Part shown: positions 1 to 19,371 of the stretch, piece after piece
Numbering within the stretch: the first letter of the stretch is position 1
Layout: each line of letters opens with the position of its first letter
Sequence record: OZ035809.1
DNA: 40,209 bases
Reading direction: 5' to 3' (one strand)
Source: Kayfunavirus T147P5
Notes under the pieces: model-generated
Databases searched by the model: none
Told to the model about the DNA's origin: nothing
The model's input: only the letters and a program-made list of their open reading frames with translations
Translations under genes and position numbers: made by a program

Positions 1-33
1 TACAAAACGATTAAAGGAGGTGGTAAAACATGA
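1..33 (+). CDS. holin (gene 17.5-like) C-terminal fragment; valid only if the window ends are contiguous (wrap-around)
   Basis: Frame 1 is open from nt 1 to TGA at 31-33 (YKTIKGGGKT*), in the same codon phase as the holin ORF that runs off the window at 40209; stop overlaps the gene 18 ATG (ATGA). Lys-rich tail fits a holin C-terminus. Confidence 0.3.
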   Translation, partial: YKTIKGGGKT

Positions 34-293
34 CGCAGATGGACTTAGAGAAGTTCCTCTTAATGCTAGATACTGAACGTGCTCGACTCATGCTGCAAGA
101 CCTGCGGGATGACTCTAAGCGTTCACCTCAGCTTTACAACGCCATTGAGAAGCTACTGGCTCGTCACAACTTCGTGCTAAGCAAGGTGTCTGTTGACGAG
201 AAGACGCTCGCTGATATGGAGGCCCTGAACGCAGAGTACGATAAGGTGCTCTCAGCGACTGAGGATAATGACACCGGGTATGGTGTTCAATAA
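30..293 (+). CDS. terminase small subunit (T7 gp18-like)
   Basis: RBS AAGGAGG at 14-20; 87 aa; shares LxMLDT...RSPQLYNAI.KLL.RH.F with T7 gp18 (recalled); lies just upstream of spanins and terminase large subunit. Confidence 0.85.
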   Translation: MTQMDLEKFLLMLDTERARLMLQDLRDDSKRSPQLYNAIEKLLARHNFVLSKVSVDEKTLADMEALNAEYDKVLSATEDNDTGYGVQ

Positions 294-295
294 GT

Positions 296-341
296 GTTAG
301 ACTCAAGGTCATTACTATATGTAGTGGCCTTTATGGTTAAC
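296..341 (+). promoter_or_regulatory. RNase III-site-like RNA hairpin (analogous position to T7 R18.5)
   Basis: Inner stem AAGGUCA(305-311)/UGGCCUU(325-331) with one G-U pair, outer stem GUUA(296-299)/UAAC(338-341), 13-nt loop; near-identical element at 16436-16481 and 9519-9565. Confidence 0.5.
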
Positions 342-354
342 ACTAGGAGGATAT

Positions 355-759
355 ATGGAAGGACAATATTTAAGCGGTGGTTACTATAAAGTAACTATCA
401 ATGGTAAGGTTCACGGGGTTCATCGGGTTAAATGGGAGATGGCGCATGGGCCAGTTCCGGCTGGCTACGTCATTGACCATATAGACCGGAACACTCTGAA
501 CAATGAGCTATCAAACCTAAGGGCAATACCTAAAGGCGCTAATGGTGCTAATACCTTATCGTCTAGAGAGTTACCAAAAGGAGTCTACTCACGGTTCGCT
601 AAAAGGCTTAACGCTACAGTGTACTATGGAGACATACGCATTGGTGGCATCAAGAGAACCCATGAGCCTACTACCAATCTACAGAAAGTTGAGGACTGGG
701 CTAAAGAGGCCCACGCAAATCTTCTTAAGGAGGTGTATGGTGTGGTTAACGTTTATTAA
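355..759 (+). CDS. HNH homing endonuclease
   Basis: RBS AGGAGG 345-350; 134 aa with HGVHRVKWEMAHGPVPAGYVIDHIDRNTLNNELSNLR (classic HNH motif); inserted between terminase small subunit and spanin, overlapping the spanin start. Confidence 0.8.
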   Translation: MEGQYLSGGYYKVTINGKVHGVHRVKWEMAHGPVPAGYVIDHIDRNTLNNELSNLRAIPKGANGANTLSSRELPKGVYSRFAKRLNATVYYGDIRIGGIKRTHEPTTNLQKVEDWAKEAHANLLKEVYGVVNVY

Positions 760-1177
760 GAGAGTGGTCCCTTGGCTAGTGGCAGGACTCCTGTTCGCCT
801 CTGGTTACTGGGTAGCTGACAATAAGTGGGAGGCTAAAGTAAATGAAGAATACATCACGAAACTTGAGGCACGAGAGAGTCAACGAACTGCTATCCAAGC
901 ACGAGTCGATGAAGTCTCAGCGGAGTGGCAGGACAAGATGTCCTCGCTGGAAGGCTCTACTGATAGGATTATTAATGACCTTAACCGCGATAACAGGCGG
1001 CTGCTCGTCAAAGTCAAGACCTCAGGTCTCAGCGAGCCAGATTACAGTAGATGCTTCCCTAATGGTCGAGTCGAACTACACCCAGAGACTTCTAAAAGTC
1101 TTATCCGAATAACGCAAGAAGCTGACCTTAAGGAGAAAGCTTTACAGGAAACCATAAGGAGGTTGCGTGGCGAATAA
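737..1177 (+). CDS. i-spanin (Rz-like, T7 gp18.5-like)
   Basis: ATG 737 with RBS AAGGAGG 725-731; N-terminal TM segment ([17 protein letters not shown]); resembles T7 gp18.5; the ORF-track start at 542 is an in-frame upstream extension without RBS. Confidence 0.8.
843..1112 (+). CDS. o-spanin (Rz1-like lipoprotein, T7 gp18.7-like), embedded in +1 frame of i-spanin
   Basis: Signal/lipobox [14 protein letters not shown]; C-terminal VDASLMVE resembles T7 gp18.7 (VDSSLMVE); fully nested within 737-1177 as in T7. Confidence 0.75.
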   Translation: MKNTSRNLRHERVNELLSKHESMKSQRSGRTRCPRWKALLIGLLMTLTAITGGCSSKSRPQVSASQITVDASLMVESNYTQRLLKVLSE

Positions 1178-2936
1178 GAAAACACCTGCTGAAAGACAGG
1201 CAGAAATGACCCAAAGGATGAGGGATGACTTCGTGTTCTTCATATTCGTTCTATGGAAAGCTCTGAGCCTTCCTGTTCCAACACGCTGCCAGATAGATAT
1301 GTGTAAGAAGCTGGCGGCTGGAGATAATCGACGCTTCATCCTTCAAGCATTCCGTGGTATTGGAAAGTCGTTCCTGACCTGTGGTTTCGTGGTCTGGAAG
1401 TTATGGAATAACCCAGACTTGAAGTTCATGATTGTGTCGGCCTCAAAGGAACGAGCCGATGCGAACTCCATCTTCATCAAGCGTATCATCGACCTCATGC
1501 CTCAGCTTCAGGAACTCAAACCTAAACAGGGGCAGCGAGATGCGGTTATCAGCTTCGACGTGGGACCTGCCAAGCCAGACCACTCACCTTCGGTTAAGTC
1601 CGTTGGTATCACTGGTCAGTTGACTGGTAGTCGTGCTGACATCCTGATTGCCGATGACGTTGAGGTTCCGAACAACTCAGCGACTCAGGCTGCACGAGAC
1701 CGTCTATCAGAGCTTGTGAAAGAGTTCGACGCTATCCTGAAGCCGGGAGGTACGATCATCTATCTGGGTACTCCTCAGAACGAGATGACCCTGTACCGTG
1801 AGCTGGAAGGTCGTGGGTACACCACTACTATCTGGCCCGCTCGTTATCCACGCGACAGGAAGGACTGGCAGTCTTACGGCGACCGTCTGGCTCCTATGCT
1901 TCAGGCAGAGCTGGAAGAGGACCCTGAGTCCTTCTACTGGCGTCCGACTGATGAAGTACGCTTCGATGATACGGACCTGAAGGAACGTGAGCTGTCCTAC
2001 GGTAAAGCTGGATTCGCTCTACAGTTCATGCTTAACCCGAACCTGAGTGATGCCGAGAAGTACCCTCTGAAGCTCCGTGACCTTATCGTAGCCGACTTGG
2101 ACCCAGCGTCCAGCCCAATGGTCTACCAATGGTTGCCAAACCCTCAGAACAAGCGTGAGGACGTTCCTAACGTGGGACTCATGGGTGACTCGTACCACAC
2201 GTATCAGACTGTAGGTTCTGCCTTCAGTTCGTACACCCAGAAGATTCTGGTCATAGACCCTAGTGGTCGTGGTAAGGATGAAACTGGCTATGCGGTACTA
2301 TACCAGCTCAACGGCTATATCTTCGCTATGGAAGTTGGCGGTATGCGTGGTGGCTATGAAGACTCTACGCTGGAAGCCTTGGCTAAGATTGGTCGTAAGT
2401 GGAAGGTCAACGAGTACGTCATTGAGGGTAACTTCGGTGATGGTATGTACCTTGAGTTATTCAAGCCTGTAGCTGCCCGTATCCATCCTGCTGCTGTAAC
2501 TGAAGTGAAGAGTAAGGGTCAGAAAGAACTCCGCATCTGTGACGTTCTGGAGCCTATCATGGGGTCTCACCGACTTATCGTTAACGCTGCTGCTATAGTC
2601 CAAGACTACCAGTCTGCCTCTGATAAGGATGGTGTTCGTAACCCTATCTACTCTCTCTTCTACCAGATGACACGTATCTCTCGTGAACGTGGAGCCTTGG
2701 CACACGATGACCGACTTGATGCGCTGGCTATCGGTGTACAGTTCTTCGTTGAGTCTATGGCTAAGGATGCCAACAAAGGCGAACGTGAAGTCACTGAGGA
2801 GTGGCTGGAGGAACAGATGGAGAACCCACGGAAAGGCTTCGAGTCCATCCACACGGAGTTCTGGGACAATGGGGTCCGGGTAACTCACGATACGGACGAC
2901 GAGCTTGGACTAGGGTCCTACGTTACGTTCCACTAG
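1167..2936 (+). CDS. terminase large subunit (T7 gp19-like)
   Basis: 589 aa; long collinear similarity to T7 gp19 ([77 protein letters not shown]). Confidence 0.95.
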
Positions 2937-3030
2937 CTGAATGAATAACTATAGGCGAAAACTGAATTAATACGCGGTTAGTAACCTATAGTTACTACCA
3001 GTCTAACCTACTGTTTTACAAGGAGTTTGG

Positions 3031-3053
3031 ACTTAACTATCACTATAGGGAAG
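3031..3053 (+). promoter_or_regulatory. phage RNAP promoter (phiOR-like)
   Basis: ACTTAACTATCACTATAGGGAAG; matches the 11-copy consensus; +1 G about 3048; between gene 19 and gene 19.5 as in T7. Confidence 0.8.
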
Positions 3054-3232
3054 ACCCCCGGTTACTTATAGTATTACTGTAGTGAATATACATATGCAGA
3101 CTTTATGCAAGACCTTAGGAGGCAGACTCCGAGTTCTTACCTAAGGCTTGCACCGATGGAAGGAGGGTGATATTAATCATAATCCCTCCAATACAGATAG
3201 TAAAGACCATAGATACAGGAGGTATGTAGCAT

Positions 3233-3391
3233 ATGGCAAAGACCAAAGCTGTACTTAAAGCTCTGGCGACCAATCGAGCTACATACAGGTTTCTTGCTGC
3301 TGTTCTACTTGCTGCTGGCGTTACTGCTGGAAGTCAGTGGGTCGGGTGGGTCGAGACTCTCGTATGTTCTCTGGTCTCTCAGTGTAATTAA
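3233..3391 (+). CDS. gp19.5-like small protein
   Basis: Not in ORF track (52 aa); RBS AGGAGG 3216-3221; MAKTKAVLKALATNRATYRFLAAVLLAAG...LVCSLVSQCN resembles T7 gp19.5 (..RVTYRFLVVL...VVCSIL..); same position after gene 19. Confidence 0.6.
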   Translation: MAKTKAVLKALATNRATYRFLAAVLLAAGVTAGSQWVGWVETLVCSLVSQCN

Positions 3392-3460
3392 CGCAATCAT
3401 GGTAACGATTCATGAGCGGAAGACCTAAGGTCAGTACGTGGATAAAGACTCACTCTACTG

Positions 3461-3599
3461 ACCTTAGCTACTGTAGTCAAGGACTTTAGGTAACACCATT
3501 CAGGCTCTCACCTCTGGTCTACCTACTGATTGGTTCACTGGTCGTCATCCGATGGTCTTAGACCTACGGTCCTTGACCTACAGTAGCTGGTTCCTAAGG
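3461..3599. repeat. imperfect inverted repeat (about 24-bp arms, about 85-bp spacer) just left of the presumed terminal repeat
   Basis: Left arm ACCTTAGCTACTGTAGTCAAGGAC (3461-3484) vs right arm GTCCTTGACCTACAGTAGCTGGT (3569-3591), reverse-complementary with one indel and one mismatch. Confidence 0.5.
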
Positions 3600-3637
3600 A
3601 GGGACGATGAGTTTTGGACCAAAAGTTTGAGACCACA

Positions 3638-3826
3638 TCTCACAGTTCAAGAACCTCAAGTCTCCCCATAGGCCATCTTTCAGTCCAGACCAAAGGCCCT
3701 ACCCCAGTCTATCATAAGGTTAGACCGATGGTCAAGACTTCAGGTCAACGATAGGTTGTGGCTATGGCTTAGGGAAGGACGATAGGTAGGGACTATGGGT
3801 CTGTCTTTGAGTCTCTATCTGTATCA
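3638..3826. repeat. probable direct terminal repeat (single collapsed copy) containing the physical genome ends
   Basis: Begins TCTCACAGTTCAAGAACCTCAAGTCTCCCCATAGG, closely resembling the first bases of the T7 genome (recalled); 246 bp downstream of gene 19.5; end near CTATCTGTATCAG is approximate. Confidence 0.45.
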
Positions 3827-3910
3827 GACCATAAGTCACTAACCTACAGTCTCACTAACCTACAGTCTCAACCATAAGACACCAACACCTACAGTCATAG
3901 ACCTACAGTT
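3827..3910. repeat. short direct-repeat array (ACCTACAGT units)
   Basis: ACCTACAGT at 3842, 3858, 3887, 3901 with tandem 16-bp CTCACTAACCTACAGT x2; analogous to the CCTAAAG-type arrays after the T7 terminal repeat. Confidence 0.5.
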
Positions 3911-4020
3911 ACTAGACACAAAGCTATAGACTTAAGGTCTAAGACATGTTAGTCAAAGACTATATCCTCTTACACCATGGGGCCGACGATAGCTTAATCA
4001 ATATTATTTCAAATTACCTA

Positions 4021-4049
4021 TTGACTATAGGTCCAGACTATGGCCTAAT
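4021..4049 (+). promoter_or_regulatory. candidate host sigma70 early promoter (T7 A1-like)
   Basis: -35 TTGACT (4021-4026), 17-bp spacer, -10 CCTAAT/CTAATA (4044-4050); resembles T7 A1 architecture (TTGACT-17-GATACT). Confidence 0.45.
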
Positions 4050-4161
4050 AGCTTACGTCAACACGACACGGCAACAACCGGATAGTGAAGACGCCGGGTC
4101 ATCCCGGTTAAGTAGACAGCCTGATAAGTCATACGAAAAACAGGCAGATGACAGAAAGTAG

Positions 4162-4191
4162 TTGACAAGCAGTAACGATAAGATGTAAGCT
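4162..4191 (+). promoter_or_regulatory. A2/A3-like promoter remnant (TTGACA ... TAAGAT) with non-canonical spacing
   Basis: TTGACA 4162-4167 and TAAGAT 4179-4184 separated by only 11 bp; alternative -10 TAAGCT at 18 bp is weak. Confidence 0.25.
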
Positions 4192-4306
4192 GTACCACAT
4201 CGAAACAACGGTGACGACCGACACTGAAACGGTCTACCTGAAGTCCTCTGACTGAAGGGAATGCTCTTTAACAATCTGGATAAACTCTTAATGTGCGCCG
4301 ATAGCG

Positions 4307-4378
4307 ACTAACTACAGGGTCTTTGAGTCTACATCTGAAGGCCCTGGCTGATAGTCACTAACTTAACGGATGGACACT
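4307..4378 (+). promoter_or_regulatory. conserved early intergenic element E1 (probable RNA processing/regulatory site)
   Basis: GACTAACTACAGGG...GGCCCTGGCTGATAGTCACTAAC; diverged copy of E2/E3; immediately precedes first early ORF. Confidence 0.4.
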
Positions 4379-4624
4379 ATGAAACACTTAAGCACAATCA
4401 CTAATCACAATGAAGTATTCGTGAACACTAAAGGTTATGCGTGGATTCAGCTTAAAGAGATGAGAGGAGCGCGTCACCGTGTGGTAGTTCGCAAGGTATC
4501 AAGCAAGCCGTTCAGCAACTACAGCGTAGATATTGTGCGTATAGACAACGAGACTTACCTGATAGACTCGCAGATAACCGTGAGTCCTACAGCGGGCATC
4601 TCAGCTCCTTATTTCGCTAACTGA
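4370..4624 (+). CDS. hypothetical early protein
   Basis: 84-aa ORF; alternative start ATG 4379 fits the RBS spacing seen for E2/E3; first gene after the host-promoter region. Confidence 0.6.
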   Translation: MDTMKHLSTITNHNEVFVNTKGYAWIQLKEMRGARHRVVVRKVSSKPFSNYSVDIVRIDNETYLIDSQITVSPTAGISAPYFAN

Positions 4625-4627
4625 GAG

Positions 4628-4697
4628 TGATTAACTACAGGTCGTTAGAATCATAGCGGCCTGACTGATAGTCACTAGCAACCTAAGAGGATTCATT
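4628..4697 (+). promoter_or_regulatory. conserved early intergenic element E2
   Basis: TGATTAACTACAGGTCGTTAGAATCATAGCGGCCTGACTGATAGTCACTAGC; about 90 percent identical to E3; fills the intergenic gap; RBS AAGAGGA follows. Confidence 0.4.
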
Positions 4698-4976
4698 ATG
4701 AGACTGAACAAAGCTACAGCAGAAGCCTTCCGCAAGGAGCTTGAATCAAGATTATTGTGTGGAGTGGCGGAAGGAGCCGCTCGATATAAAGAGAATGGTC
4801 TAACGTTCAAGCGCTTTATGTGGGATTGCTATCACGGAGTGGGCCATAAAAAGTCGCAGGAAATAATCACCAGCAACAATGCGGAAGTGCAAGTGATAGG
4901 AGGATACATGGCTAACGTGAAGGATTCACACATAGAGACAATGCTTAAGAATGCACTTAAAGATGTAGCCTACTAG
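4698..4976 (+). CDS. hypothetical early protein
   Basis: 92-aa ORF with RBS AAGAGGA; no recognisable motif. Confidence 0.65.
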   Translation: MRLNKATAEAFRKELESRLLCGVAEGAARYKENGLTFKRFMWDCYHGVGHKKSQEIITSNNAEVQVIGGYMANVKDSHIETMLKNALKDVAY

Positions 4977-5046
4977 TGATTAACTACAGGTCGTTAGACT
5001 GATAGCGGCCTGACTGATAGTCACTAACAACTGAGAGGATATAACT
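4977..5046 (+). promoter_or_regulatory. conserved early intergenic element E3
   Basis: TGATTAACTACAGGTCGTTAGACTGATAGCGGCCTGACTGATAGTCACTAACAAC; contains short hairpin TGACT-GAT-AGTCA; precedes ocr-like gene. Confidence 0.4.
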
Positions 5047-5550
5047 ATGGAACGTAACGCTAACGCATACTATGAGCTGCTGGCTGCAACCGTTGAGGCA
5101 TTTATCGAGCGTATTCAGTACGACCACCTGACTCAAGATGATGACTACAGCGATGCGCTGCATGAGGTCGTAGACGGTCAGGTTCCACACTATTACCACG
5201 AGATTTTTACGGTGATGGCTGCTGATGGTATAGACCACGAGTTCGAAGACTCTGGGCTGATGCCTGAAACCAAGGACGTAACGCGTATACTACAAGCTCG
5301 CATCTATGAGGCGCTTTATAACGATGTGTCTAATAGCTTGGATGTAGTCTGGTTTGAGGCTGAAGAGGCAGACGAAGAGGATGAATATTGGGTAGTTGAC
5401 GCTAAAACAGGCGCAATAATTGTGCAAGCTGTAGCTCTTGAGGTCGCTACTGCATGTGCCAATGTCAACTATGCAACAGGTCGCCACCTGAAGGTGGAAG
5501 ACATCAATGATAACGTAGTGTTCGACCCTGCGGCTGAGGACTGCGAGTGA
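5047..5550 (+). CDS. ocr: Ocr-like DNA-mimic anti-restriction protein (T7 gp0.3-like) with about 54-aa C-terminal extension
   Basis: [43 protein letters not shown] nearly identical to T7 Ocr core; acidic stretch [10 protein letters not shown]; 167 aa versus 117 aa in T7. Confidence 0.8.
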
Positions 5551-5705
5551 TGGTAACTTATGGTATCTGCCAGCACCACGTCGCAAACGCCCGGCTTATG
5601 GTCAAGACCGGGCAATTAAACCACGATGCGACTATGCGTCACCTGAAAGCGGTCTATGAGGGCCGCAAGCGCATACACGACAGTTTGCACGCTGAGGATA
5701 AGTAA
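5550..5705 (+). CDS. small early protein at the position of T7 gene 0.4
   Basis: Not in ORF track (51 aa); ATG overlaps ocr stop (TGATG); ..TMRHLKAVYEGRKRI.. loosely resembles T7 gp0.4 as recalled. Confidence 0.45.
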   Translation: MVTYGICQHHVANARLMVKTGQLNHDATMRHLKAVYEGRKRIHDSLHAEDK

Positions 5706-5818
5706 CGTGTATCATAGCCTGACCATAACGCTGACAGGCGGGTACTGAGTGATAGACGAGAGGTCATCGACTGATAGGTGGCCTCAAAGATTACCACTTG
5801 AATTAATAGGAGTTAACT

Positions 5819-5908
5819 ATGAGTGTGGGATATTGGGTCTGCCTAGCGCCAGTTATCTGGATGATAGGCTATGGGTTATACGACTGTATTAAACGGAAAT
5901 CACTATGA
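5819..5908 (+). CDS. small hydrophobic peptide (29 aa)
   Basis: RBS AGGAG 5808-5812; MSVGYWVCLAPVIWMIGYGLYDCIKRKSL; stop overlaps next ATG. Confidence 0.3.
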   Translation: MSVGYWVCLAPVIWMIGYGLYDCIKRKSL

Positions 5909-6102
5909 GTCTTGCACTATTGATAGCCATAGGCTATGGACTTATCGCCTACGTGCTGATGAGAGACATCTACAAAGCGCGTAAAGTCTACAAATTCAAC
6001 TATGTACGTCTGGGCCGCTGGACTGTACGTCAACCTAACGGACGATTCATGCGCAACCTAGCGAACGTCTGGGATATAGCAACACTTGGGAGCAAACTGT
6101 AA
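5905..6102 (+). CDS. small membrane protein
   Basis: 65-aa ORF with N-terminal TM segment LALLIAIGYGLIAYVLM; translationally coupled to the flanking ORFs. Confidence 0.5.
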   Translation: MSLALLIAIGYGLIAYVLMRDIYKARKVYKFNYVRLGRWTVRQPNGRFMRNLANVWDIATLGSKL

Positions 6103-6428
6103 TGAACAAGTCATACGGGATTAATCTGGTACACTCTATGGACGCAGACATGCAAATGTTAAGCCTACTTGCTACCGGGTATCGTCACGGAACGTCAAGT
6201 CACACCGCACGTCAACAGCAGGAGCGGGACCGGGTACTGCAAGCAAGACTCCGGGCTGAGGGCCATAAGTCCGAGCTGATGTGTCTGGCGTATGGTGGAC
6301 GACCAATCACTGACGATGGTAAACTTTTAGTCTCAGGCTGGAAGGCGATAGACCAACGGTCAACCATCAAGCACACGACTCATGGTGACTTCAGTCATCT
6401 TCACGCTAACCCACTGATATGCAAGTGA
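6102..6428 (+). CDS. hypothetical early protein
   Basis: 108-aa ORF occupying the slot where T7 has gene 0.7; no kinase motifs. Confidence 0.6.
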   Translation: MNKSYGINLVHSMDADMQMLSLLATGYRHGTSSHTARQQQERDRVLQARLRAEGHKSELMCLAYGGRPITDDGKLLVSGWKAIDQRSTIKHTTHGDFSHLHANPLICK

Positions 6429-6433
6429 TTCTG

Positions 6434-6456
6434 ACTTAACTATCACTATAGGACTC
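6434..6456 (+). promoter_or_regulatory. phage RNAP promoter immediately upstream of the RNAP gene
   Basis: ACTTAACTATCACTATAGGACTC; full consensus match; leader 6457-6525 contains direct repeats (AAGTGAAAGAC x2, GACTTTAAGT x2). Confidence 0.75.
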
Positions 6457-6525
6457 AAGGTCTAAGACTCCAAGTGAAAGACCAAAGAGACTTTAAGTGA
6501 AAGACTAATAACAAGGACTTTAAGT

Positions 6526-9207
6526 ATGAGCGTCATCTCTATTGACAAACACGACTTCTCTGATGTGTCGAACGCCATTGAGCCGTTTAACCTGCTGGCT
6601 GACCACTACGGGCAAGACCTTGCAGTCAAACAGCTTCAGCTTGAGCATGAGGCATACACTGAAGGCGAGCGACGTTTCATCAAGAACCTTGAGCGGCAGA
6701 CTGAGCGAGGGGAACTGGCAGACAATCAGGTCGCCAAGCCTTTGATGCAGACTCTGGTTCCTAAGATTGCGCAAGCCGTCAAGGAGTGGCATGAAGGTCC
6801 AGACGGGAAGCTGTCAACCTCTCGTCCGAGCGTAGCGTTCACCATGTTAAGCACTGAAGAGAAGGCCGTCAAGGACCGCTCTCTTCGCATCTCCTGCGAG
6901 TCTGCTGCGGTTATCATACTGAAGGTCATCCTCTCCAAGCTGGTCAAGCCTGAAGGTATACCGATTACACCGATGGCCTCCGCGATAGGTCGCACACTTG
7001 AGGATGAAATCCGATTCGGTCGCATTCGTGACAAGGAGAAGGAGCACTTCAAGAAGGCAATAGCTGATAACCTGAACAAGAGAGCCGGGGCATCATACAA
7101 GAAAGCCTACATGCAAGCGGTCGAGACATCCATGCTGGAGCAAGGCCAACTAGAAGATGCGTGGGGAACTTGGAGTCCGACCGAGGCTGTCCACGTTGGA
7201 ATCAAGATGCTGGAGATTGTCATCCAGTCAACACAACTGGTCGAGCTTAAGCGTTATGGTGCTGGCAATGCAGCGGCTGACGTTGAGATGGTCCACCTGT
7301 CAGACTTCTGGGTCAAGAAGATGGCACAACGCGGCTTCAGCCTTGCGGGCATCGCTCCAGTCTACCAACCTTGCGTAGTTCCACCTAAGCCGTGGACTGG
7401 TGTCGTAGGCGGTGGGTACTGGGCCAAAGGTCGCAGACCATTACCACTGATTCGCTTAGGGTCTAAGTCTGCGGTGGCACGTTACGAAGACGTGTATATG
7501 CCTGAAGTCTATGACGCTGTTAACATCATCCAGAATACACCTTGGAAAGTGAACAAGAAGGTTCTGGACGTGGTGAACATGGTCGAGAAGTTGAACAACA
7601 CGCCTATTGATGACATCCCTCAGATGGAGCCACTGAAGCCTGAAGAATATGCGGGTGAGACTGAAGAGGAACTCAAGGCGTGGAAGAAAGCGGCTGCTGG
7701 TATCTATCGCCGCGAGAAGGCCAGACAGTCACGCAGGTTGTCGCTGAGCTTTATCGTTAACCAAGCGAACAAGTTCTCTCAGTTCAAGGCCATCTGGTTC
7801 CCGTATAACATGGACTGGCGCGGTCGCGTCTACGCTGTGCCGATGTTCAACCCTCAGGGTAACGACATGCAAAAGGGTCTCCTGACTCTGGCAGTCGGTA
7901 AGCCTATTGGTGCTGATGGTTTCAAATGGCTGAAGGTCCACGGTGCAAACTGTGCGGGTGTCGATAAAGTCACCTTCGAGGAGCGCATCAAGTGGGTGGA
8001 AGATAACCACGACAACATCATGGCTACCGCTAAGGCACCGATGGACAGCATTGAGTGGTGGGGTAAGTTAGACTCTCCGTTCTGCTTCCTAGCGTTCTGC
8101 TTCGAGTATGCTGGCGTAATGCACCACGGTTTGTCTTACTCCTGCTCGCTGCCGATAGCTTTCGATGGGTCCTGCTCTGGGATTCAGCACTTCAGCGCGA
8201 TGCTTCGTGATCACATCGGTGGACATGCAGTAAACCTGACGCCTTCCGGTAAGGTCCAAGACATCTACCGCATCGTGTCTGACCGCATTGAGGAGGAGCT
8301 TAAAGTCCTGCTGGTTAATGGCACGGACAACGAGGGGGTCACTAACGAGGATAAGAAAACTGGCGAGATTACCGAACGTATCAAGCTGGGGACACGAGAG
8401 CTGGCCCGCCAGTGGCTGACTTACGGTATGTCACGCAAGGTTACTAAGCGCTCAGTCATGACTCTGGCCTATGGGTCGAAAGAGTACGGCTTTGCAGACC
8501 AAGTTTACGAGGACATCGTGATGCCAGCGATTGACTCAGGGTCTGGCGCTATGTTCACTGAACCAAGCCAAGCGTCTCGCTTCATGGCTAAGATGATTTG
8601 GGAAGCTGTGAGTGTGACCGTAGTTGCTGCAGTTGACGCGATGAAGTGGCTTCAAGGTGCTGCCAAGCTGCTGGCGGCTGAAGTGAAGGACAAGAAGACT
8701 GGAGAAATCCTGAAGCCTTGCCTTCCGGTACACTGGGTCACACCTGATGGGTTCCCGGTCTGGCAGGAATACCGCAAGAAGGATACCACTCGTCTGAACC
8801 TGATGTTCTTAGGGTCATTCAACCTTCAGCCTACCGTCAACAAAGGCACGAAGAAGGAGTTGGATAAGCACAAGCAGGAGTCAGGAATTAGCCCGAACTT
8901 CGTCCACTCACAAGATGGTAGCCATCTCCGCAAGACTGTAGTCCACACTCACCGCAAGTATGGCGTGATGTCATTCGCAGTGATTCACGATAGCTTCGGG
9001 ACCATCCCGGCTGACGCTGAGTATCTGTTCCGGGGTGTCCGTGAGACGATGGTCGAGACCTACCGCGACAACGATGTGCTGCTTGACTTCTACGAGCAGT
9101 TTGAATACCAACTTCATGAGAGCCAGCGCGACAAGTTGCCTGAGCTTCCGAAGAAAGGTAAACTGAATATTGAGGACATTCTATCTTCAGACTTTGCATT
9201 CGCTTAA
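6526..9207 (+). CDS. DNA-directed RNA polymerase, single-subunit (T7 gp1-like)
   Basis: 893 aa; collinear with T7 RNAP (DFSD...PFN.LADHYG, FQPCVVPPKPWTG, WFPYNMDWRGRVYAV, FCFLAFCFEYAG, HDSFGT, C-terminal FAFA). Confidence 0.97.
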   Translation: MSVISIDKHDFSDVSNAIEPFNLLADHYGQDLAVKQLQLEHEAYTEGERRFIKNLERQTERGELADNQVAKPLMQTLVPKIAQAVKEWHEGPDGKLSTSRPSVAFTMLSTEEKAVKDRSLRISCESAAVIILKVILSKLVKPEGIPITPMASAIGRTLEDEIRFGRIRDKEKEHFKKAIADNLNKRAGASYKKAYMQAVETSMLEQGQLEDAWGTWSPTEAVHVGIKMLEIVIQSTQLVELKRYGAGNAAADVEMVHLSDFWVKKMAQRGFSLAGIAPVYQPCVVPPKPWTGVVGGGYWAKGRRPLPLIRLGSKSAVARYEDVYMPEVYDAVNIIQNTPWKVNKKVLDVVNMVEKLNNTPIDDIPQMEPLKPEEYAGETEEELKAWKKAAAGIYRREKARQSRRLSLSFIVNQANKFSQFKAIWFPYNMDWRGRVYAVPMFNPQGNDMQKGLLTLAVGKPIGADGFKWLKVHGANCAGVDKVTFEERIKWVEDNHDNIMATAKAPMDSIEWWGKLDSPFCFLAFCFEYAGVMHHGLSYSCSLPIAFDGSCSGIQHFSAMLRDHIGGHAVNLTPSGKVQDIYRIVSDRIEEELKVLLVNGTDNEGVTNEDKKTGEITERIKLGTRELARQWLTYGMSRKVTKRSVMTLAYGSKEYGFADQVYEDIVMPAIDSGSGAMFTEPSQASRFMAKMIWEAVSVTVVAAVDAMKWLQGAAKLLAAEVKDKKTGEILKPCLPVHWVTPDGFPVWQEYRKKDTTRLNLMFLGSFNLQPTVNKGTKKELDKHKQESGISPNFVHSQDGSHLRKTVVHTHRKYGVMSFAVIHDSFGTIPADAEYLFRGVRETMVETYRDNDVLLDFYEQFEYQLHESQRDKLPELPKKGKLNIEDILSSDFAFA

Positions 9208-9223
9208 TAACAGGAGAGACAAC

Positions 9224-9424
9224 ATGCAATTCGAACACCGTGTATCAAACGTACCTGGTGGTAACAAGGTCGTAACAGTAACAATGGCGGCTGGCAAGGG
9301 TCTATTCAAAGTTACTATGGTCCCGACTGGAACGGCTAAGGCCAAAGGTATCAGCCAGAAGGAGCTGATTCAGGTAATCCAGTGGTCGCACGAGAAGGCC
9401 CTACGGGAAGAGGCAACCAAATGA
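9224..9424 (+). CDS. hypothetical protein
   Basis: RBS CAGGAGAG 9211-9218, ATG 9224; 66 aa; the ORF-track start at 9170 overlaps the RNAP 3' end and lacks RBS. Confidence 0.5.
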   Translation: MQFEHRVSNVPGGNKVVTVTMAAGKGLFKVTMVPTGTAKAKGISQKELIQVIQWSHEKALREEATK

Positions 9425-9500
9425 CAGACCTACAGTTACTGGCCATGTGGCTGGGAGCACTAGCAGTATTCACTTTAATCCAACGCAGAAGAGGTTAACC

Positions 9501-9523
9501 CTAAACTATCACTATAGGATTAG
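9501..9523 (+). promoter_or_regulatory. phage RNAP promoter (phi1.1-like)
   Basis: CTAAACTATCACTATAGGATTAG; +1 about 9518. Confidence 0.8.
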
Positions 9524-9565
9524 ACTAAAGGTCATGACTCAAAGTCGTGGCCTTCATGATTAACC
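9519..9565 (+). promoter_or_regulatory. RNase III-site-like hairpin (analogous position to T7 R1.1)
   Basis: Same inner stem AAGGUCA(9528-9534)/UGGCCUU(9548-9554) as the elements at 296 and 16436. Confidence 0.45.
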
Positions 9566-9595
9566 CTAAATAAACACTACTGGAGATTTAACCGT

Positions 9596-9775
9596 ATGTA
9601 TCAGAACACTATCAACTTCGAGCGCATCCGTGAACGTCAGCAGACTGAAGGTTACATCCCGAAGGGCCGCAAGCTGAACAAGACCAAGCGTGGCGGTGGT
9701 ATCAAAGGCGCTTTCCGAAACGCTGAAGGTAAAGACTCTCTGGTCAACCAAGAGAAATACTTCGTAGGAGCATAA
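9596..9775 (+). CDS. gp1.1-like small basic protein
   Basis: Not in ORF track (59 aa); RBS GGAG 9582-9585; ..KGRKLNKTKRGGG.. resembles T7 gp1.1 (KGRKLNKTKR). Confidence 0.55.
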   Translation: MYQNTINFERIRERQQTEGYIPKGRKLNKTKRGGGIKGAFRNAEGKDSLVNQEKYFVGA

Positions 9776-9779
9776 CTCT

Positions 9780-10043
9780 ATGGGCCGACTTTATAGTGGC
9801 AACCTCAACGCTTTCAGAGCAGCGTGTAACAGGCTTTATCAGTTAGACTTCGCTGTTATATCTCAGGAGTTTCAAGACCATACGTCACGCCAAGAGTGCA
9901 TGAAACTCAGGGTGGAGGACCGAGCTGGTAACATCTTCGCGCTTGAGACCTTCGCACACTACGATGAAGACGTGCTGTATAATACTGCAACAGACTACCT
10001 CAACGGTCTCGCTGACCAACTCGACACATGGAGCAAAGCATAA
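9780..10043 (+). CDS. gp1.2-like protein (dGTPase inhibitor family)
   Basis: 87 aa; MGRLYSGNLNAF.AA.N.L.QLD.AVI...RL.EDR.GN...T.HDEDVL.N..TD.LN closely resembles T7 gp1.2. Confidence 0.8.
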   Translation: MGRLYSGNLNAFRAACNRLYQLDFAVISQEFQDHTSRQECMKLRVEDRAGNIFALETFAHYDEDVLYNTATDYLNGLADQLDTWSKA

Positions 10044-11125
10044 TGACAACTATCAAAACTAACCCGCACCGCGCTGTAGATTACTCTGAGTCTGGCATTA
10101 AAAAGGCACTGGAAGCAGCCGGGTCTCTGGAAGCTGAAGTGAAGTACGATGGTGTCCGGTTGAACCTTCCGGTGCTGCGAGAAGGTGAGACATACTGGTT
10201 AAGCCGTGAGTCTAAACCGCTGCCAGCACTGGAGTGGATGAACTCTGAGTTAGGGAATGCGTGGACTCAAGCTGACTGGCGATGGTTCCTGCGTCAAGCT
10301 GGATACGAAGGCGTAGGCCTGATGATTGACGGAGAGGTAATGGTCAAAGGTGTTGACTTCAACACATCATCGGGTCTCATCCGAACGAAGTGGCTGAAGC
10401 CTAGCAACGAGGAGTTCGCTGAATGCTATCCGGGACGTGGCAAGAAGGTCCCGTTCTGGGTAGCCAGGTCACGACTCAAGGTTGTGGTCTACGGCGTCGT
10501 AGATATGACAACCATTGCTGACCCGAAAGCCGAAGGTCCTATCCATAGCGTCACACGCCTGAAGGCCGAAGCTATCGTCCCTCTCCTCCAGAAATACTTC
10601 CCGGAAATCTACTGGGTTCTGTCTGAGTCACACACGGTCTATGACCTTGAGTCGCTCAACTCCCTGTACGAACAGAAGCGTCTGGAAGGACATGAGGGTC
10701 TGGTAGTCAAGGACCCACTAGGTAAGTACAAGCGTGGCAAGAAGTCTGGCATGTGGAAAATGAAGCCTGAGGAGACCATCGACGGGACCGTGTGTGGCCT
10801 CGTGTGGGGGACTCCTGGTAAGGCTAACGAAGGTAAGGTCATCGGCTTTGAGGTTCTACTGGAGGATGGCATGGTGGTCAACGCCTGTGGTCTGACTGAA
10901 GAACAGAAGGACGAGTTTACGGCTAAGGTCAAGGAGGACACGCTTGCTGCGGTTGGCATCTTTGAGCCGTACGGCATTGGTGGTAACGAACCTTGCTTCA
11001 ATAACCCATACGAAGGCTGGCAGTGTGAAGTCCTCTTCATGGAGAGGTTCCCTGATGGCTCCCTTCGTCACCCCAGCTTCAAGTGCTGGCGTGGAACCGA
11101 AGACAACCCAACGGTGAAGTCATGA
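10043..11125 (+). CDS. ATP-dependent DNA ligase (T7 gp1.3-like)
   Basis: Start chosen at ATG 10043 (TAATG overlap with gp1.2) to match T7 N-terminus (MTTIKTNP..); adenylation motif EVKYDGVR; EGHEGLVVKDP; KSGMWKMKPE; SLRHPSF. Confidence 0.9.
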   Translation: MTTIKTNPHRAVDYSESGIKKALEAAGSLEAEVKYDGVRLNLPVLREGETYWLSRESKPLPALEWMNSELGNAWTQADWRWFLRQAGYEGVGLMIDGEVMVKGVDFNTSSGLIRTKWLKPSNEEFAECYPGRGKKVPFWVARSRLKVVVYGVVDMTTIADPKAEGPIHSVTRLKAEAIVPLLQKYFPEIYWVLSESHTVYDLESLNSLYEQKRLEGHEGLVVKDPLGKYKRGKKSGMWKMKPEETIDGTVCGLVWGTPGKANEGKVIGFEVLLEDGMVVNACGLTEEQKDEFTAKVKEDTLAAVGIFEPYGIGGNEPCFNNPYEGWQCEVLFMERFPDGSLRHPSFKCWRGTEDNPTVKS

Positions 11126-11301
11126 GTACACAACTTTATATCAACATAGCAAGTGGTCAACTCTACGCTGTGGTAAATGGCGAGCTGTGGTATCGTAAAC
11201 TCAAGAAGTGGGCCAAGTCCTACTACGATGAAGAGACAATATCAACCATGAGTCATCGCTACCGTAAGGCTGCTAAGGTGAACAACTTTAAGATGCGTTA
11301 A
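11122..11301 (+). CDS. hypothetical small protein (gene 1.4/1.5 position)
   Basis: ATG 11122 overlaps ligase stop (ATGA); 59 aa. Confidence 0.5.
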   Translation: MSTQLYINIASGQLYAVVNGELWYRKLKKWAKSYYDEETISTMSHRYRKAAKVNNFKMR

Positions 11302-11307
11302 CGTCAA

Positions 11308-11339
11308 CCCAGTGGTCTTAGGACTGCTGGGTTTCTTTG
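11308..11339 (+). terminator. intrinsic terminator candidate (analogous to T7 early terminator TE after gene 1.3)
   Basis: Stem CCCAGUGGUC (11308-11317)/GACUGCUGGG (11322-11331) with two G-U pairs, loop UUAG, followed by UUUCUUUG. Confidence 0.6.
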
Positions 11340-11360
11340 CGTCTGGGCCACCAGCTAGAC

Positions 11361-11383
11361 CCTAAGCTATCACTATAGGACAA
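11361..11383 (+). promoter_or_regulatory. phage RNAP promoter
   Basis: CCTAAGCTATCACTATAGGACAA; +1 about 11378. Confidence 0.75.
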
Positions 11384-11409
11384 CCCTAACCGACCAAAGG
11401 AGAAACCTT

Positions 11410-11664
11410 ATGTCTAAAAACTTAATGTTCAACCGATTTACTCGAAGCTTCCACCTGTCGCATAGCCCATTCAGCTTCCATAAAGCTAATCAACCATTAC
11501 CCCGCTTTGGTAAGACAGTGGCTCTGTCTCCTACAGTTCATGCGCTAGTCACCCGCAAGTCTATGCTGAATGCTATGGATAAAGAACAAGTTGATGTGCC
11601 TGTGGTCATTACAAAATGGCCTCGCATTAAGCTGGCACTTCTGGTAATTAAGGAGGCGCTCTGA
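11410..11664 (+). CDS. hypothetical protein (gene 1.6 position)
   Basis: 84-aa ORF downstream of promoter; RBS AAGGAG 11397-11402. Confidence 0.55.
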   Translation: MSKNLMFNRFTRSFHLSHSPFSFHKANQPLPRFGKTVALSPTVHALVTRKSMLNAMDKEQVDVPVVITKWPRIKLALLVIKEAL

Positions 11665-11996
11665 TGACATACTGTGATAGCACCACATACTGTGAAGCAT
11701 GTAATGGTGACGACCGCTTCCCGCACGTTGGTAAACTTGTAGGTAACAAACTACAAGAAATTGATGACGTCCGCAAGCCGTCCCACTATCAGGTCTTTGA
11801 TAGCGTGGAATCCATTGAGATTATCGCACGGTCAATGACTGTGAGTGAGTTCCGTGGGTTCTGCATGGGTAACGTCCTGAAGTATCGACTCCGGGCTGGT
11901 AAGAAGTCCGAACTGGCTACTATGGAGAAGGACCTGAACAAAGCATCCTTCTATCAGAAGCTGTTCGACTTGCATAAAGGTAAGTGCTATGCTTAA
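11664..11996 (+). CDS. gp1.7-like protein (short form)
   Basis: 110 aa; KPSHYQVFDSVE...GFCMGNVLKYRLRAG resembles a conserved block of T7 gp1.7 as recalled; shorter than T7 gp1.7. Confidence 0.45.
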   Translation: MTYCDSTTYCEACNGDDRFPHVGKLVGNKLQEIDDVRKPSHYQVFDSVESIEIIARSMTVSEFRGFCMGNVLKYRLRAGKKSELATMEKDLNKASFYQKLFDLHKGKCYA

Positions 11997-12075
11997 TGAT
12001 ATTGTGTATTACTGTGTAGTATGCGCCGGAGTTGGAGCACTAATCATTTTAATATATTGGGCCATAGAGGTGTAA
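11989..12075 (+). CDS. small hydrophobic peptide (28 aa)
   Basis: ATG 11989 overlaps preceding stop (ATGCTTAA); MLNDIVYYCVVCAGVGALIILIYWAIEV; stop TAA 12073-12075 directly before next ATG. Confidence 0.25.
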   Translation: MLNDIVYYCVVCAGVGALIILIYWAIEV

Positions 12076-12076
12076 T

Positions 12077-12175
12077 ATGGAAAAGCCGAGTGAGTGGTGC
12101 GAGCATAAATTTGAGGAGACAGGTAACGTCGATTACCTTCAGCTCTACAACTTATGGAAGGAGCGTGGTCTATGA
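12077..12175 (+). CDS. small protein (32 aa)
   Basis: [32 protein letters not shown]; stop overlaps gp2 ATG (ATGA). Confidence 0.3.
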
Positions 12176-12330
12176 CTGACGTAGAGAAGAAATACATCGT
12201 GGAGCTTGAGGGTCGCGTTCAGTCCTTCGAGGTTCCGATGTATGCAAGGTCTCTTGAAGAGGCTACCCTGAAGTCCCAAGAGTATGAGGACGCTGGGTTT
12301 GTGGTCGGACGGATTCGTCCTGAGCCCTAA
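12172..12330 (+). CDS. gp2-like inhibitor of host RNA polymerase
   Basis: Not in ORF track (52 aa); [14 protein letters not shown]......[10 protein letters not shown] matches T7 gp2 core (SFEVPIYAETLDEA...AGFEVTRVRP). Confidence 0.7.
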
Positions 12331-12348
12331 ACTATCACTGTAGGACAG
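12326..12348 (+). promoter_or_regulatory. phage RNAP promoter (variant, phi2.5-like)
   Basis: CCTAAACTATCACTGTAGGACAG; one substitution at -3; overlaps gp2 stop. Confidence 0.6.
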
Positions 12349-12387
12349 ACGTCCAGTTCGTAACTTTAAATTAGGAGATTTACACCA

Positions 12388-13086
12388 ATGGCTAAAGAGC
12401 AACTGAAGACTTTCACCACTCCGGTAGCTGGTATCGTTGAGCCTTACGCATGGCTGAACAAAGCAGACACCAAGTTTAATGAACGTGGTGAGCATAAGGT
12501 TAACCTGACATTCGACCTGAGCAACCCGAAGGTCCGTAAGATGATTGATGTCTTACAGAAGATTCACGACGATGCGTATGCGAAAGCACTCGCAGACCAC
12601 GAGAAGAACCCACCTCAGGTTCAGCGTGGCAAGAAGCCTATTGAACCACGAGAGGGCGACATGCCGTGGATTGAGAATGGTGACGGTACTGTTACCATGA
12701 AGTTTAAATGCTTCGCGTCTTACCTGAAGGATGGTAAGTCAGAGCCTATCGTATTACGGTTCTACGACACCGATGCTAAGTTAATCCGTGACGTCCCGAA
12801 TATTGGCGCTGGCTCAAAACTGAAGGTCAAGTTTAAAGTCCTGCCGTTCAAGTGGAACGCTGCGACTGGTGCAAGCGTTAAGCTACAGCTTGAGTCCTGC
12901 CTTCTGGTAGAACTGAAGGAGTGGAAAGGTGATGGTACTGGTGGCGATGGCGGCTGGGGTGATGATGAAGACCTCGGTACTGGCTACAAAGCATCAACCG
13001 ATGGTGACTTCGGGTCTGATGACTTCGGTGACGATGGTTACGAAGGTGGTGACGACTCCAACTCTGGTGGCGATTACGACTTCTAA
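12388..13086 (+). CDS. single-stranded DNA-binding protein (T7 gp2.5-like)
   Basis: 232 aa; Gly/Asp-rich acidic C-terminus ending GGDYDF as in gp2.5; RBS TTAGGAG. Confidence 0.9.
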   Translation: MAKEQLKTFTTPVAGIVEPYAWLNKADTKFNERGEHKVNLTFDLSNPKVRKMIDVLQKIHDDAYAKALADHEKNPPQVQRGKKPIEPREGDMPWIENGDGTVTMKFKCFASYLKDGKSEPIVLRFYDTDAKLIRDVPNIGAGSKLKVKFKVLPFKWNAATGASVKLQLESCLLVELKEWKGDGTGGDGGWGDDEDLGTGYKASTDGDFGSDDFGDDGYEGGDDSNSGGDYDF

Positions 13087-13538
13087 TGGCCCAATGGTCT
13101 GCAAAACGGGGGCACTCTGTGGGTGCCTACCGCTCTGGACTTGAAGCCAAGAACCAGCAGTGGCTGGAACAGAACGGCGTCAAAGCGGAGTACGAAAGCC
13201 ATTATATCAACTATGTGATTCCGGCTTCCGACCACAAGTACACACCAGATTTTATCCTTCCCAACGGTATCATCGTGGAGACCAAAGGTATCTTTGATAG
13301 TGATGACCGTAAGAAGCACCTTCTGGTACGAGAACAGCACCCAGAGTTAGACATCCGGTTCGTGTTCTCAAGTTCCCGCTCAAAGTTATACAAAGGGTCT
13401 CCGACCACGTATGGAGCATGGTGCGAAAAGAACGGCTATAAGTATGCCGATAAGTTCATCCCGGTTGAGTGGCTGCGAGAGGCGACTGTACGTCTGCCTT
13501 CAGGTATACTCATCCCCAAGAAGAAAGGAGTTAAGTGA
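13086..13538 (+). CDS. endonuclease I, Holliday-junction resolvase (T7 gp3-like)
   Basis: 150 aa; YVIPASDHKYTPDF.LPNGI.VETKG...SDDRKKHLL.REQHPELDIR.VFSSSR.KLYKGSPTTYG near-identical to T7 endo I. Confidence 0.92.
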   Translation: MAQWSAKRGHSVGAYRSGLEAKNQQWLEQNGVKAEYESHYINYVIPASDHKYTPDFILPNGIIVETKGIFDSDDRKKHLLVREQHPELDIRFVFSSSRSKLYKGSPTTYGAWCEKNGYKYADKFIPVEWLREATVRLPSGILIPKKKGVK

Positions 13539-13762
13539 TGACTCAGGAAGTTAAGGTCGTTCGTCAGCGTCTGACCATTGATAAAATCCCGGTAGGCTAT
13601 GCGTTTATCGTCCACGGTAAGCCGGGTGAAGTGTACGTGAAGATTAGTAACTCTCACGTCTTCAACCATAAGTTACTCCAGATGCACACCACGGATGCTA
13701 ACCGCTTCCAACGTCATCTGAACCTCGTAGCTGTAGAGCTGGTGGTGTATGATGGTGAGTAA
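13535..13762 (+). CDS. hypothetical protein
   Basis: 75-aa ORF; RBS AAGGAG; overlaps flanking genes by a few nt; no T7 counterpart between gene 3 and 3.5. Confidence 0.5.
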   Translation: MMTQEVKVVRQRLTIDKIPVGYAFIVHGKPGEVYVKISNSHVFNHKLLQMHTTDANRFQRHLNLVAVELVVYDGE

Positions 13763-14210
13763 GGTGCAATTCAACCCACGGTCACGGACTGACGCTATCT
13801 TCGTTCACTGTTCGGCTACCAAGCCAGAGATGGACATCGGGGTAGAGACCATCCGTATGTGGCACAAGCAGCAAGGCTGGCTGGACGTAGGCTACCACTT
13901 TATCATCAAGCGCGATGGTACTGTGGAAGAGGGTCGCCCTGTCAATGTCGTAGGGTCACACGTTAAGGACTGGAACTCACGGTCTGTAGGAGTCTGCCTT
14001 GTAGGCGGAATTGACGCTAAGGGCAAGTTTGAAGCTAACTTCACTCAGGCCCAGATGAACTCCCTGCGCAACAAGCTGGCTGACCTGAAGGCCCTGTATC
14101 CTCAGGCAGAAATCAAAGCACACCATGACGTAGCACCAAAGGCGTGTCCAAGTTTCGACTTACAACGCTGGCTGTCTACCAATGAGCTGGTCACTTCCGA
14201 CCACGGTTAA
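13749..14210 (+). CDS. lysozyme / N-acetylmuramoyl-L-alanine amidase (T7 gp3.5-like)
   Basis: 153 aa; TDAIFVHCSATKP, WLDVGYHFIIKRDGTVEEGR, VCLVGGIDAKGKF.ANFT.AQM.SL, HHDVAPKACPSFDL match T7 lysozyme. Confidence 0.92.
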   Translation: MMVSKVQFNPRSRTDAIFVHCSATKPEMDIGVETIRMWHKQQGWLDVGYHFIIKRDGTVEEGRPVNVVGSHVKDWNSRSVGVCLVGGIDAKGKFEANFTQAQMNSLRNKLADLKALYPQAEIKAHHDVAPKACPSFDLQRWLSTNELVTSDHG

Positions 14211-14234
14211 TAAACTCTAAAGGAGAATAACTCA

Positions 14235-14450
14235 ATGATTAAACTTATCGAATTTCTTGGTCGTCTGGTGGTGCGTGGCTATCGTCGTGCTGCGGTACTG
14301 GAACGAAAGGTAGAAAAGAAGACTGCCGATGGTGCGGCTGATGCTGCTGCTATGGCTGACAAGCTGACCATCGCGTCACTGGAAGCTGGCATGAAGGCAC
14401 GTCAAGCTGACACCAAAGCTAACCAGTTGGCTAAGTTCTTCAAAGCCTAA
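14235..14450 (+). CDS. hypothetical protein
   Basis: 71-aa ORF with RBS AAGGAG; Ala/Lys-rich. Confidence 0.55.
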   Translation: MIKLIEFLGRLVVRGYRRAAVLERKVEKKTADGAADAAAMADKLTIASLEAGMKARQADTKANQLAKFFKA

Positions 14451-14468
14451 ACTATCACCTTAGGGATG
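14446..14468 (+). promoter_or_regulatory. phage RNAP promoter (degenerate variant)
   Basis: CCTAAACTATCACCTTAGGGATG; two substitutions in the -4 to -2 region; upstream of primase-helicase. Confidence 0.5.
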
Positions 14469-14515
14469 GGACCGTGAGTCCTGTCCCTCTGTTCGCATTT
14501 GTGATTAAGGAGTGA

Positions 14516-16219
<1,704 letters not shown>

Positions 16220-16234
16220 ATGTCAATGCCCTGA

Positions 16235-16481: not shown

Positions 16482-16498
16482 TAAACGGAGGATTAACC

Positions 16499-19059: not shown

Positions 19060-19090
19060 CCATCGAACCCAGACCCTACGCTTCCATACC

Positions 19091-19366: not shown

Positions 19367-19371
19367 CCACA

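Follow-up and report, generated by a model that had tools for sequence, protein, structure and literature searches.

The closest described counterparts of the elements analyzed here are the RNase cleavage sites of phage T7, of which the published T7 literature gives ten, among them R3.8, R4.7, R6.5, R13 and R18.5. Internal loops in such hairpins limit RNase III to one phosphodiester, and the hairpin left over at the 3' end shields the upstream RNA from 3'-5' exonucleases (PMC1540722). Whereas the T7 sites have been mapped experimentally, cleavage in the phage studied here is predicted from homology. For reference sequences we used T7 site coordinates attributed to Dunn & Studier 1983. The sequences at these coordinates fold as canonical sites, and seven of the ten share their arrangement of lower stem, loop and upper stem with the hairpins described below.

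The DNA that we examined (here the window; 40,209 nt, record OZ035809.1, Kayfunavirus T147P5) belongs to the K1F-like phages (Autographiviridae, Studiervirinae), and its first 20 kb is 93 to 96% identical to Kayfunavirus genomes over 85 to 94% of their length. Its large open reading frames (ORFs) are all encoded on the + strand and follow the T7 gene order, the record begins near gene 18, and a K1F-type phage promoter (CTAAACTATCACTATAGGA) is dispersed across the genome in 12 copies. These features mark the window as an essentially complete genome of a T7-group (K1F-like) phage that is circularly permuted. One ORF within it (24110-25069), which judged by gene order is probably the scaffolding gene 9, contains a perfect 39-bp in-frame tandem duplication of 13 codons (24395-24472; repeat family D15).

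An earlier sequence-only reading of this genome had placed three RNase III site-like hairpins at 296-341, 9519-9565 and 16436-16481, two of them immediately 5' of HNH endonuclease genes. All three are present where it put them, but the full hairpins are slightly longer, and the count of three was too low, as a covariance model (described below) adds four members in the early region. The three lie on the + strand at 293-345 (R18.5 type), 9516-9568 (R1.1 type; repeat family D1) and 16434-16484 (R4.7 type). The inner stem that they were said to have in common is borne out: the pattern AAGGTC-N(8-24)-GGCCTT has exactly three matches in the window, all on the + strand, where shuffled sequences predict 0.07. 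So is the related 5' flank, which reads AGACTCAAGGTCA at 299 and 16440 and AGACTAAAGGTCA at 9522. In each element, 8 base pairs make up the lower stem and 9 to 12 the upper one, and between them lies an asymmetric internal loop with 4 nt on its 5' side and 5 nt on its 3' side. Minimum free energy and centroid folds agree on this arrangement, with the hairpin extending over about two helical turns, and the three fold more stably than dinucleotide shuffles (-23.4, -19.4 and -20.2 kcal/mol; z-scores of -5.0, -3.9 and -5.2). The outer stems differ in sequence and remain complementary, as had been claimed, with three distinct versions (GUGUUA/UAACAC, GGUCUA/UAGACU and AGG.AUUA/UAA.CCU).

The hairpins are fitted closely into their gene junctions, which we annotated with Pfam and PHROGs. 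The R18.5-type hairpin overlaps the stop codon (291-293) of gene 18, the small terminase subunit (30-293, +), and is followed by an HNH_3 gene (355-759, +) and by gene 18.5, an Rz-like spanin (737-1177, +); its 3' end lies 1 nt ahead of the Shine-Dalgarno sequence of the HNH gene (AGGAGG). The R4.7-type hairpin overlaps the stop codon (16433-16435) of one of the small ORFs that follow gene 4 and precedes a second HNH_3 gene (16499-16900, +) and gene 5, encoding DNA polymerase (16891-19059, +). Both of these hairpins start on an upstream stop codon and finish 1 to 3 nt ahead of the next Shine-Dalgarno sequence, and the HNH genes start 10 to 15 nt downstream, directly behind the hairpins as originally noted. 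The R1.1-type hairpin is flanked by a phage promoter (9495-9519) on its 5' side and a degenerate copy of the promoter (9560-9584) on its 3' side; gene 1.1 (9596-9775) and gene 1.2 lie downstream.

Comparison with T7 identifies what these elements most likely are. The three hairpins align column by column, almost unambiguously, with T7 R0.3, R0.5, R1, R1.1, R1.3, R4.7 and R18.5. The window and T7 sites have a common core (ACUCAAGGUC-loop-GUGGCCUUUAUGAUU) in which AAGG...GUGGCCUU and the AUGAUU 3' loop are near-invariant, and the box region AAGGUC/GGCCUU is the same as in the cleaved T7 sites. Rules on inhibitory (antideterminant) base pairs in the proximal and distal boxes of RNase III substrates are set out in PMC1540722. 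Their positions are syntenic as well, at the gene 18/18.5 junction, the gene 4 region/gene 5 junction and the phi1.1A/hairpin/phi1.1B-1.1 arrangement. Together with the alignment to R0.5, R1.1, R4.7 and R18.5, this supports the earlier proposal that the positions match known T7 RNase III sites. A covariance model trained on the three window sequences and seven T7 sequences scored the R18.5-, R1.1- and R4.7-type hairpins at 62.4, 56.1 and 59.5 bits, within a range shared with the T7 sites, and it recovered T7 R6.5, which lay outside the training set, at 42 bits. Antisense matches reached at most 13 bits. Like the T7 sites, then, the window hairpins combine the sequence core and stem-loop-stem architecture with a place on the coding strand at gene junctions, including the promoter-hairpin-promoter order before gene 1.1. 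Unlike them, they have lower stems and apical loops that diverge in sequence, with pairing kept. A second difference lies in what follows: T7 has gene 4.7, without an HNH domain, behind R4.7 and gene 18.5 directly behind R18.5, whereas here HNH genes lie between.

We put the probability at roughly 0.9 that, on this comparative evidence, the three hairpins are orthologues of T7 R18.5, R1.1 and R4.7, that the early region holds at least four further copies, and that the HNH genes are separate mobile elements. Judged by homology, the hairpins are textbook T7-group RNase III processing signals, already known as a class and essentially unchanged in K1F and its relatives. No Rfam family matched them at the gathering threshold or at E values up to 1, so there is no independent curated model for these signals. 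Our literature searches returned no relevant account of RNase III site annotation in K1F-like phages, and likewise none that connects HNH genes with RNase III sites.

Stable, GC-containing intergenic stem-loops followed by a U-rich CCUUUAU might also be transcription terminators or pause sites for the host or phage RNA polymerase. In these hairpins, however, the U-rich stretch sits inside the internal loop and the lower stem comes after it, leaving no free U tail. A terminator scan of positions 1 to 20000 called none of the seven hairpins, genuine U-tract terminator-like hairpins were found elsewhere (around 11306-11340 and 26541-26580), and the T7 homologues of these hairpins are established sites of cleavage. 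A terminator or pause function is, in our estimate, very improbable.

If the hairpins are RNase III sites, they would be transcribed on the + strand within long polycistronic mRNAs, each presenting about two helical turns of double-stranded RNA broken by the asymmetric internal loop. Host RNase III would bind and make a single cut on the loop's 3' side, at a predicted CCUU(U/C)AU|G(A/G)UU. The hairpin would be left at the 3' end of the upstream message (that of gene 18, in the case of the R18.5-type copy), blocking 3' exonucleases, and a new 5'-monophosphate end would lie 20 to 38 nt ahead of the next start codon. Alignment to T7 R1.1 predicts cuts at U334|G335, U9557|G9558 and U16473|G16474, the first of which is also predicted by alignment to R18.5; the corresponding 5' leaders would be 20, 38 and 25 nt long. 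The reference for these cuts is T7 R1.1 coordinate 5887, which presumably lies in CCUUUAU|GAUUG. From these alignments we infer both RNase III cleavage and the exact scissile bond.

We also considered that cleavage activates translation of the downstream gene. The predicted probability that the region from Shine-Dalgarno sequence to AUG is unpaired went from 0.42 to 0.41, from 0.68 to 0.45 and from 0.58 to 0.52 upon cutting. Predicted accessibility being unchanged or lower, no unmasking of the Shine-Dalgarno sequence is indicated; the idea was dropped, and a translational consequence for the HNH genes is unsupported.

The additional family members found by the covariance model are four hairpins in the early region, all on the + strand, which also fold as RNase III-type hairpins and resemble T7 R1 (ACAGGUCG...CGGCCUGA). 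They lie at 4303-4360 (26.6 bits, E about 4e-4, the weakest match), 4626-4677 (44.5 bits; R1-like and 95% identical to the next copy), 4975-5026 (45.4 bits; directly upstream of the ocr-like gene 0.3 at 5047-5550) and 5748-5799 (36.6 bits). This brings the window to seven matches, and K1F has six. Three candidate atypical sites, missed by the covariance model, came from folding of other intergenic regions: an R3.8-like hairpin at about 14459-14500 with a T7-like 3' flank (CUGUUCGCAUU / CTGTTCGCATT), and long promoter-enclosing hairpins at about 20798-20907 (R6.5-like) and 29737-29786 (R13-like).

Small early genes, together with the ocr-like gene 0.3, are enclosed by the early hairpins. The stretch 4303-5031 contains near-identical hairpins (57 nt, 95% identical, 349 bp apart; repeat family D8), and the ORFs that they bracket (4370-4624 and 4698-4976) are mutually unrelated. 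A tandem duplication of an early gene with its hairpin is thereby out, and the arrangement suggests instead that cassettes were exchanged through recombination between the hairpin repeats. The window has one more hairpin-bounded early unit than K1F or AN17P1.

The hairpin DNA is among the most conserved noncoding sequence in T7-like genomes, being more than 92% identical across genera. For more than 300 records of Klebsiella phages, the hairpin element of about 50 nt is the only part of the window that matches. In its upper stem and loop (305-331, AAGGTCATTACTATATGTAGTGGCCTT), the R18.5-type hairpin is identical to the R4.7 hairpin found in K11/KP32-like Klebsiella phages, with different lower stems, and the T7-like IMG/VR contig L141 carries a matching upper stem and loop on its minus strand near position 8999.

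Similarity of this kind might reflect a DNA-level repeat, for example a recombination linker between gene modules, with no function as RNA. The near-identical hairpins around interchangeable early genes, the extra early unit and the apical stem-loop shared between an R18.5 and an R4.7 copy would all fit such a reading. What it fails to account for is the maintenance of pairing. The RNAalifold consensus has 17 pairs (8 + 9), nine of them with compensatory changes. We extended the comparison to 33 covariance-model matches from 15 sources (the window, T7, K1F and twelve other relatives). Standard pairs fill 95.4% of the pair cells in this set and 78% in shuffles, and 10 of the 17 pairs show two-sided changes; since the alignment was fitted to the model, these pairing figures are somewhat inflated toward structure. 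None of 500 shuffles had a covariation score as high as that of the real set, and pairing fell to between 21 and 50% when the 3' partner was shifted by 1 to 3 columns. Sense folds are more stable than antisense folds by 1.5 to 13 kcal/mol, and the weaker antisense folds together with conserved G-U pairs argue for a structure formed by the coding-strand RNA. Service as a linker might come in addition and would leave the structure itself unexplained, so that we consider a purely DNA-level explanation quite improbable. The earlier argument for a selected RNA structure is upheld by the compensatory changes in both the consensus fold and the 33-sequence test.

We next turn to the HNH genes. The two hairpin-adjacent proteins match PF13392 (HNH_3) with E values of 2e-17 and 5e-17, and PHROG HNH families as well. 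Small HNH_3 ORFs, precise presence/absence polymorphism between close relatives, a place between conserved genes and overlap onto the downstream start are features that they share with the free-standing HNH genes of the T7 gp3.8/gp7.7 type. The protein encoded at 355-759, the first cistron past the R18.5-type hairpin, belongs to the T7 gp3.8/YZ1 subfamily and the one at 16499-16900 to the T7 gp7.7 subfamily; the two show 42% identity over only 36 residues. Altogether the window has five HNH_3 genes, starting at 355, 16499, about 18947, 22094 and 33145.

Four of the five are clean presence/absence cassettes of 394 to 433 bp with sharp boundaries in whole-genome comparison with AN17P1 and K1F. 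They occupy 344-767 (approximate; inserted or replaced), 16507-16905, 22094-22487 (between genes 7.3 and 8) and 33143-33575 (between genes 15 and 16). Each sits at the ribosome-binding site (RBS) or start codon of the downstream gene, whose Shine-Dalgarno sequence and ATG are replaced by ones in the last codons of the cassette itself. For gene 18.5, the RBS (AAGGAGG, 727-733) and first codons lie within the 3' end of the cassette. The latter two cassettes have the same design and no hairpin; a hairpin is found at two of the four cassette junctions, and of all five HNH genes three are without one.

The gene 5 site shows the rearrangement in detail. At the start of gene 5, K1F, EcoDS1 and AN17P1 read hairpin-GGAGGATTAACC-ATGTTTGAC, that is, hairpin-ACTAAA(G)CGGAGGATTAACC-ATGTTTGAC. 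The window is identical to the HNH-less relatives up to ATGTTTGA and then enters the HNH ORF (MFDCIEW...), which takes its Shine-Dalgarno sequence, and ATG TTT GA, from the ancestral start of gene 5. Gene 5 restarts at 16891 from an RBS (GGAGGAGAAAC) inside the 3' end of the HNH gene, so that both its new RBS and its ATG (GGAGGAGAAACATG) come from the cassette. Here the putative homing endonuclease goes beyond the T7-type HNH genes, in that its ORF captures the Shine-Dalgarno sequence and first codons of gene 5 itself. Downstream, gene 5 of the window is uninterrupted, and within 16891-19366 it is followed by an HNH ORF that overlaps its end and is 47% identical to that of K1F; in K1F (12921-15690), the annotation splits the DNA polymerase gene and places an HNH gene within it.

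The sequence-only reading had left two possibilities for the adjacency, namely that the HNH cassettes landed next to processing sites or that they carry the hairpin with them, for instance as their own expression or processing signal. In favor of the latter, two of the three hairpins first listed lie 10 to 15 nt upstream of HNH starts, and in T7 an HNH gene, 3.8, comes after R3.8. The HNH-less relatives speak against it. K1F, which lacks both hairpin-adjacent HNH genes of the window, has an identical R18.5 copy (36448-36500) and near-identical R4.7 (12855-12905) and R1.1 (5568-5620) copies. The R18.5-type hairpin is identical or near-identical in K1F, AN24P4, AN17P1 and ST10, and the R4.7 type is present in K1F, EcoDS1, CLB_P1, CR44b, SH3, Bas105 and SFP21B. 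Hairpins are intact in K1F, AN17P1, EcoDS1, ST10, PRF-SP11 and IMM-002, which have no adjacent HNH gene, and homology breaks only on the 3' side. Every relative that we examined with the flanking genes has kept the hairpin, HNH gene or not; the loss from such relatives that the sequence-only reading had named as grounds for refutation was not observed.

At the gene 18 site, K1F, ST10, PRF-SP11, IMM-002 and AN17P1 have the hairpin, a spacer of about 60 nt and gene 18.5. The whole gp18-HNH-gp18.5 stretch is shared with a single record, AN24P4, and most Kayfunavirus matches stop at 345, the last base of the hairpin. Query coverage of at least 80% across the HNH site was found in one of 597 records for the gene 18 site and in 12 of 210 for the gene 5 site, where those 12 records carry the HNH gene. 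In whole-genome comparison with HNH-less AN17P1 and K1F, homology runs through the hairpins and breaks at 343/345-768 and 16506-16906, that is, 3' of both, which supports landing beside existing processing sites.

Among 81 IMG/VR loci with homologues of the two HNH proteins, a hairpin lies within 1.5 kb at only two, both orthologous Kayfunavirus loci; the first HNH protein (355-759) retrieved a single distant locus as a query, too few for context analysis. Given also that the two HNH proteins come from different subfamilies and that most HNH genes in the window have no hairpin, we find it barely credible that the hairpin travels with the cassette, a reading that the boundary mapping already refutes.

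PRF-SP11 has an HNH_3 gene (2312-2749) between genes 18.5 and 19 in place of one behind the hairpin, ST10 a hypothetical ORF of the same size at the same place (1700-2137), and AN17P1 about 440 bp of extra sequence there (815-1256).

The preferred reading is that the HNH genes are free-standing mobile cassettes of the homing-endonuclease type, about 400 bp long, which would insert at the RBS or start of a conserved gene and bring a replacement RBS in their own 3' end. Homing activity of the window proteins is something we infer from their family and cassette anatomy. Genes 5 and 18.5 are each the first gene past a processing site, so cassettes inserting at their starts come to lie directly behind pre-existing hairpins. 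On this comparative evidence, the adjacency of HNH genes and hairpins is incidental. More broadly, nuclease genes are described at boundaries of genetic exchange between phages (PMC10055350).

A further possibility is that RNase III sites are preferred landing pads, either because the hairpin DNA is an endonuclease target or because the first position in a processed mRNA favors expression. Several junctions are suggestive. Behind the R18.5-type hairpin, an HNH_3 gene is found in the window, in AN24P4 and in YZ1 (74% identical), and in Escherichia phage vB_EcoP-Ro103C3lw an unrelated Endonuclease_7-family gene (PF02945; 1764-2192) occupies the same place and is an independent nuclease insertion at this junction. 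Behind R4.7, Kayfunavirus has one HNH gene and the T7/K11-like contig L214 a different one, which encodes 143 amino acids, replaces gene 4.7 and is followed by gene 5. In other genera, the IMG/VR contigs L172 and L209 have an R1.3 hairpin, a 142-aa HNH gene and ligase, with the HNH gene truncated in L141. T7 gp3.8 follows R3.8, and hairpin DNA more than 92% identical across genera is as usual for homing targets. We also considered T7 gp4.7 as a degenerate HNH protein; it has no Pfam match, so the R4.7-then-4.7 order of T7 is no precedent.

A census gave these cases no statistical weight. A pattern scan of IMG/VR yielded 120 T7-like stretches (959 kb) with 214 hairpin matches, whose usual contexts are before genes 1.3, 1.1, 4.7, 1, 5, 18.5 and 0.5. 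An HNH gene was the first downstream ORF for 5 of the 214 hairpins. Conversely, 6 of 34 HNH ORFs (18%) lay behind a hairpin, against about 16% of junctions (binomial p = 0.46); the census is rough, with gene number estimated from T7 gene density and with redundant contigs that were chosen for containing hairpins. The special link between HNH genes and processing sites implied by the sequence-only reading thus found no enrichment behind it. Within the window alone, two of five HNH genes lie behind a hairpin (p about 0.12 to 0.22). Cassettes at hairpin-free junctions share the same architecture, cleavage brings no predicted change in Shine-Dalgarno accessibility, and preferential landing at RNase III sites is on balance unlikely. 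The conserved hairpin DNA might serve as a target for unrelated nucleases (two HNH_3 subfamilies and an Endonuclease VII type), and perhaps also as a recombination linker, a prospect that we hold to be doubtful. Were it true, an RNA-processing signal would double as a hotspot of phage genome mosaicism.

The significance of these findings beyond annotation is small, and start-codon capture with RBS replacement is an anatomical detail and no new phenomenon. The hairpins mark the likeliest points at which the polycistronic mRNAs of this phage are cut, which helps in interpreting its transcriptome. In the engineering of K1F-type therapeutic phages, inserts placed at hairpin junctions would be separated from upstream genes. 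For the compact T7-like genomes, the comparison suggests that HNH cassettes seize the site where translation of an essential gene begins and provide a replacement for it, with the processing sites as bystanders.
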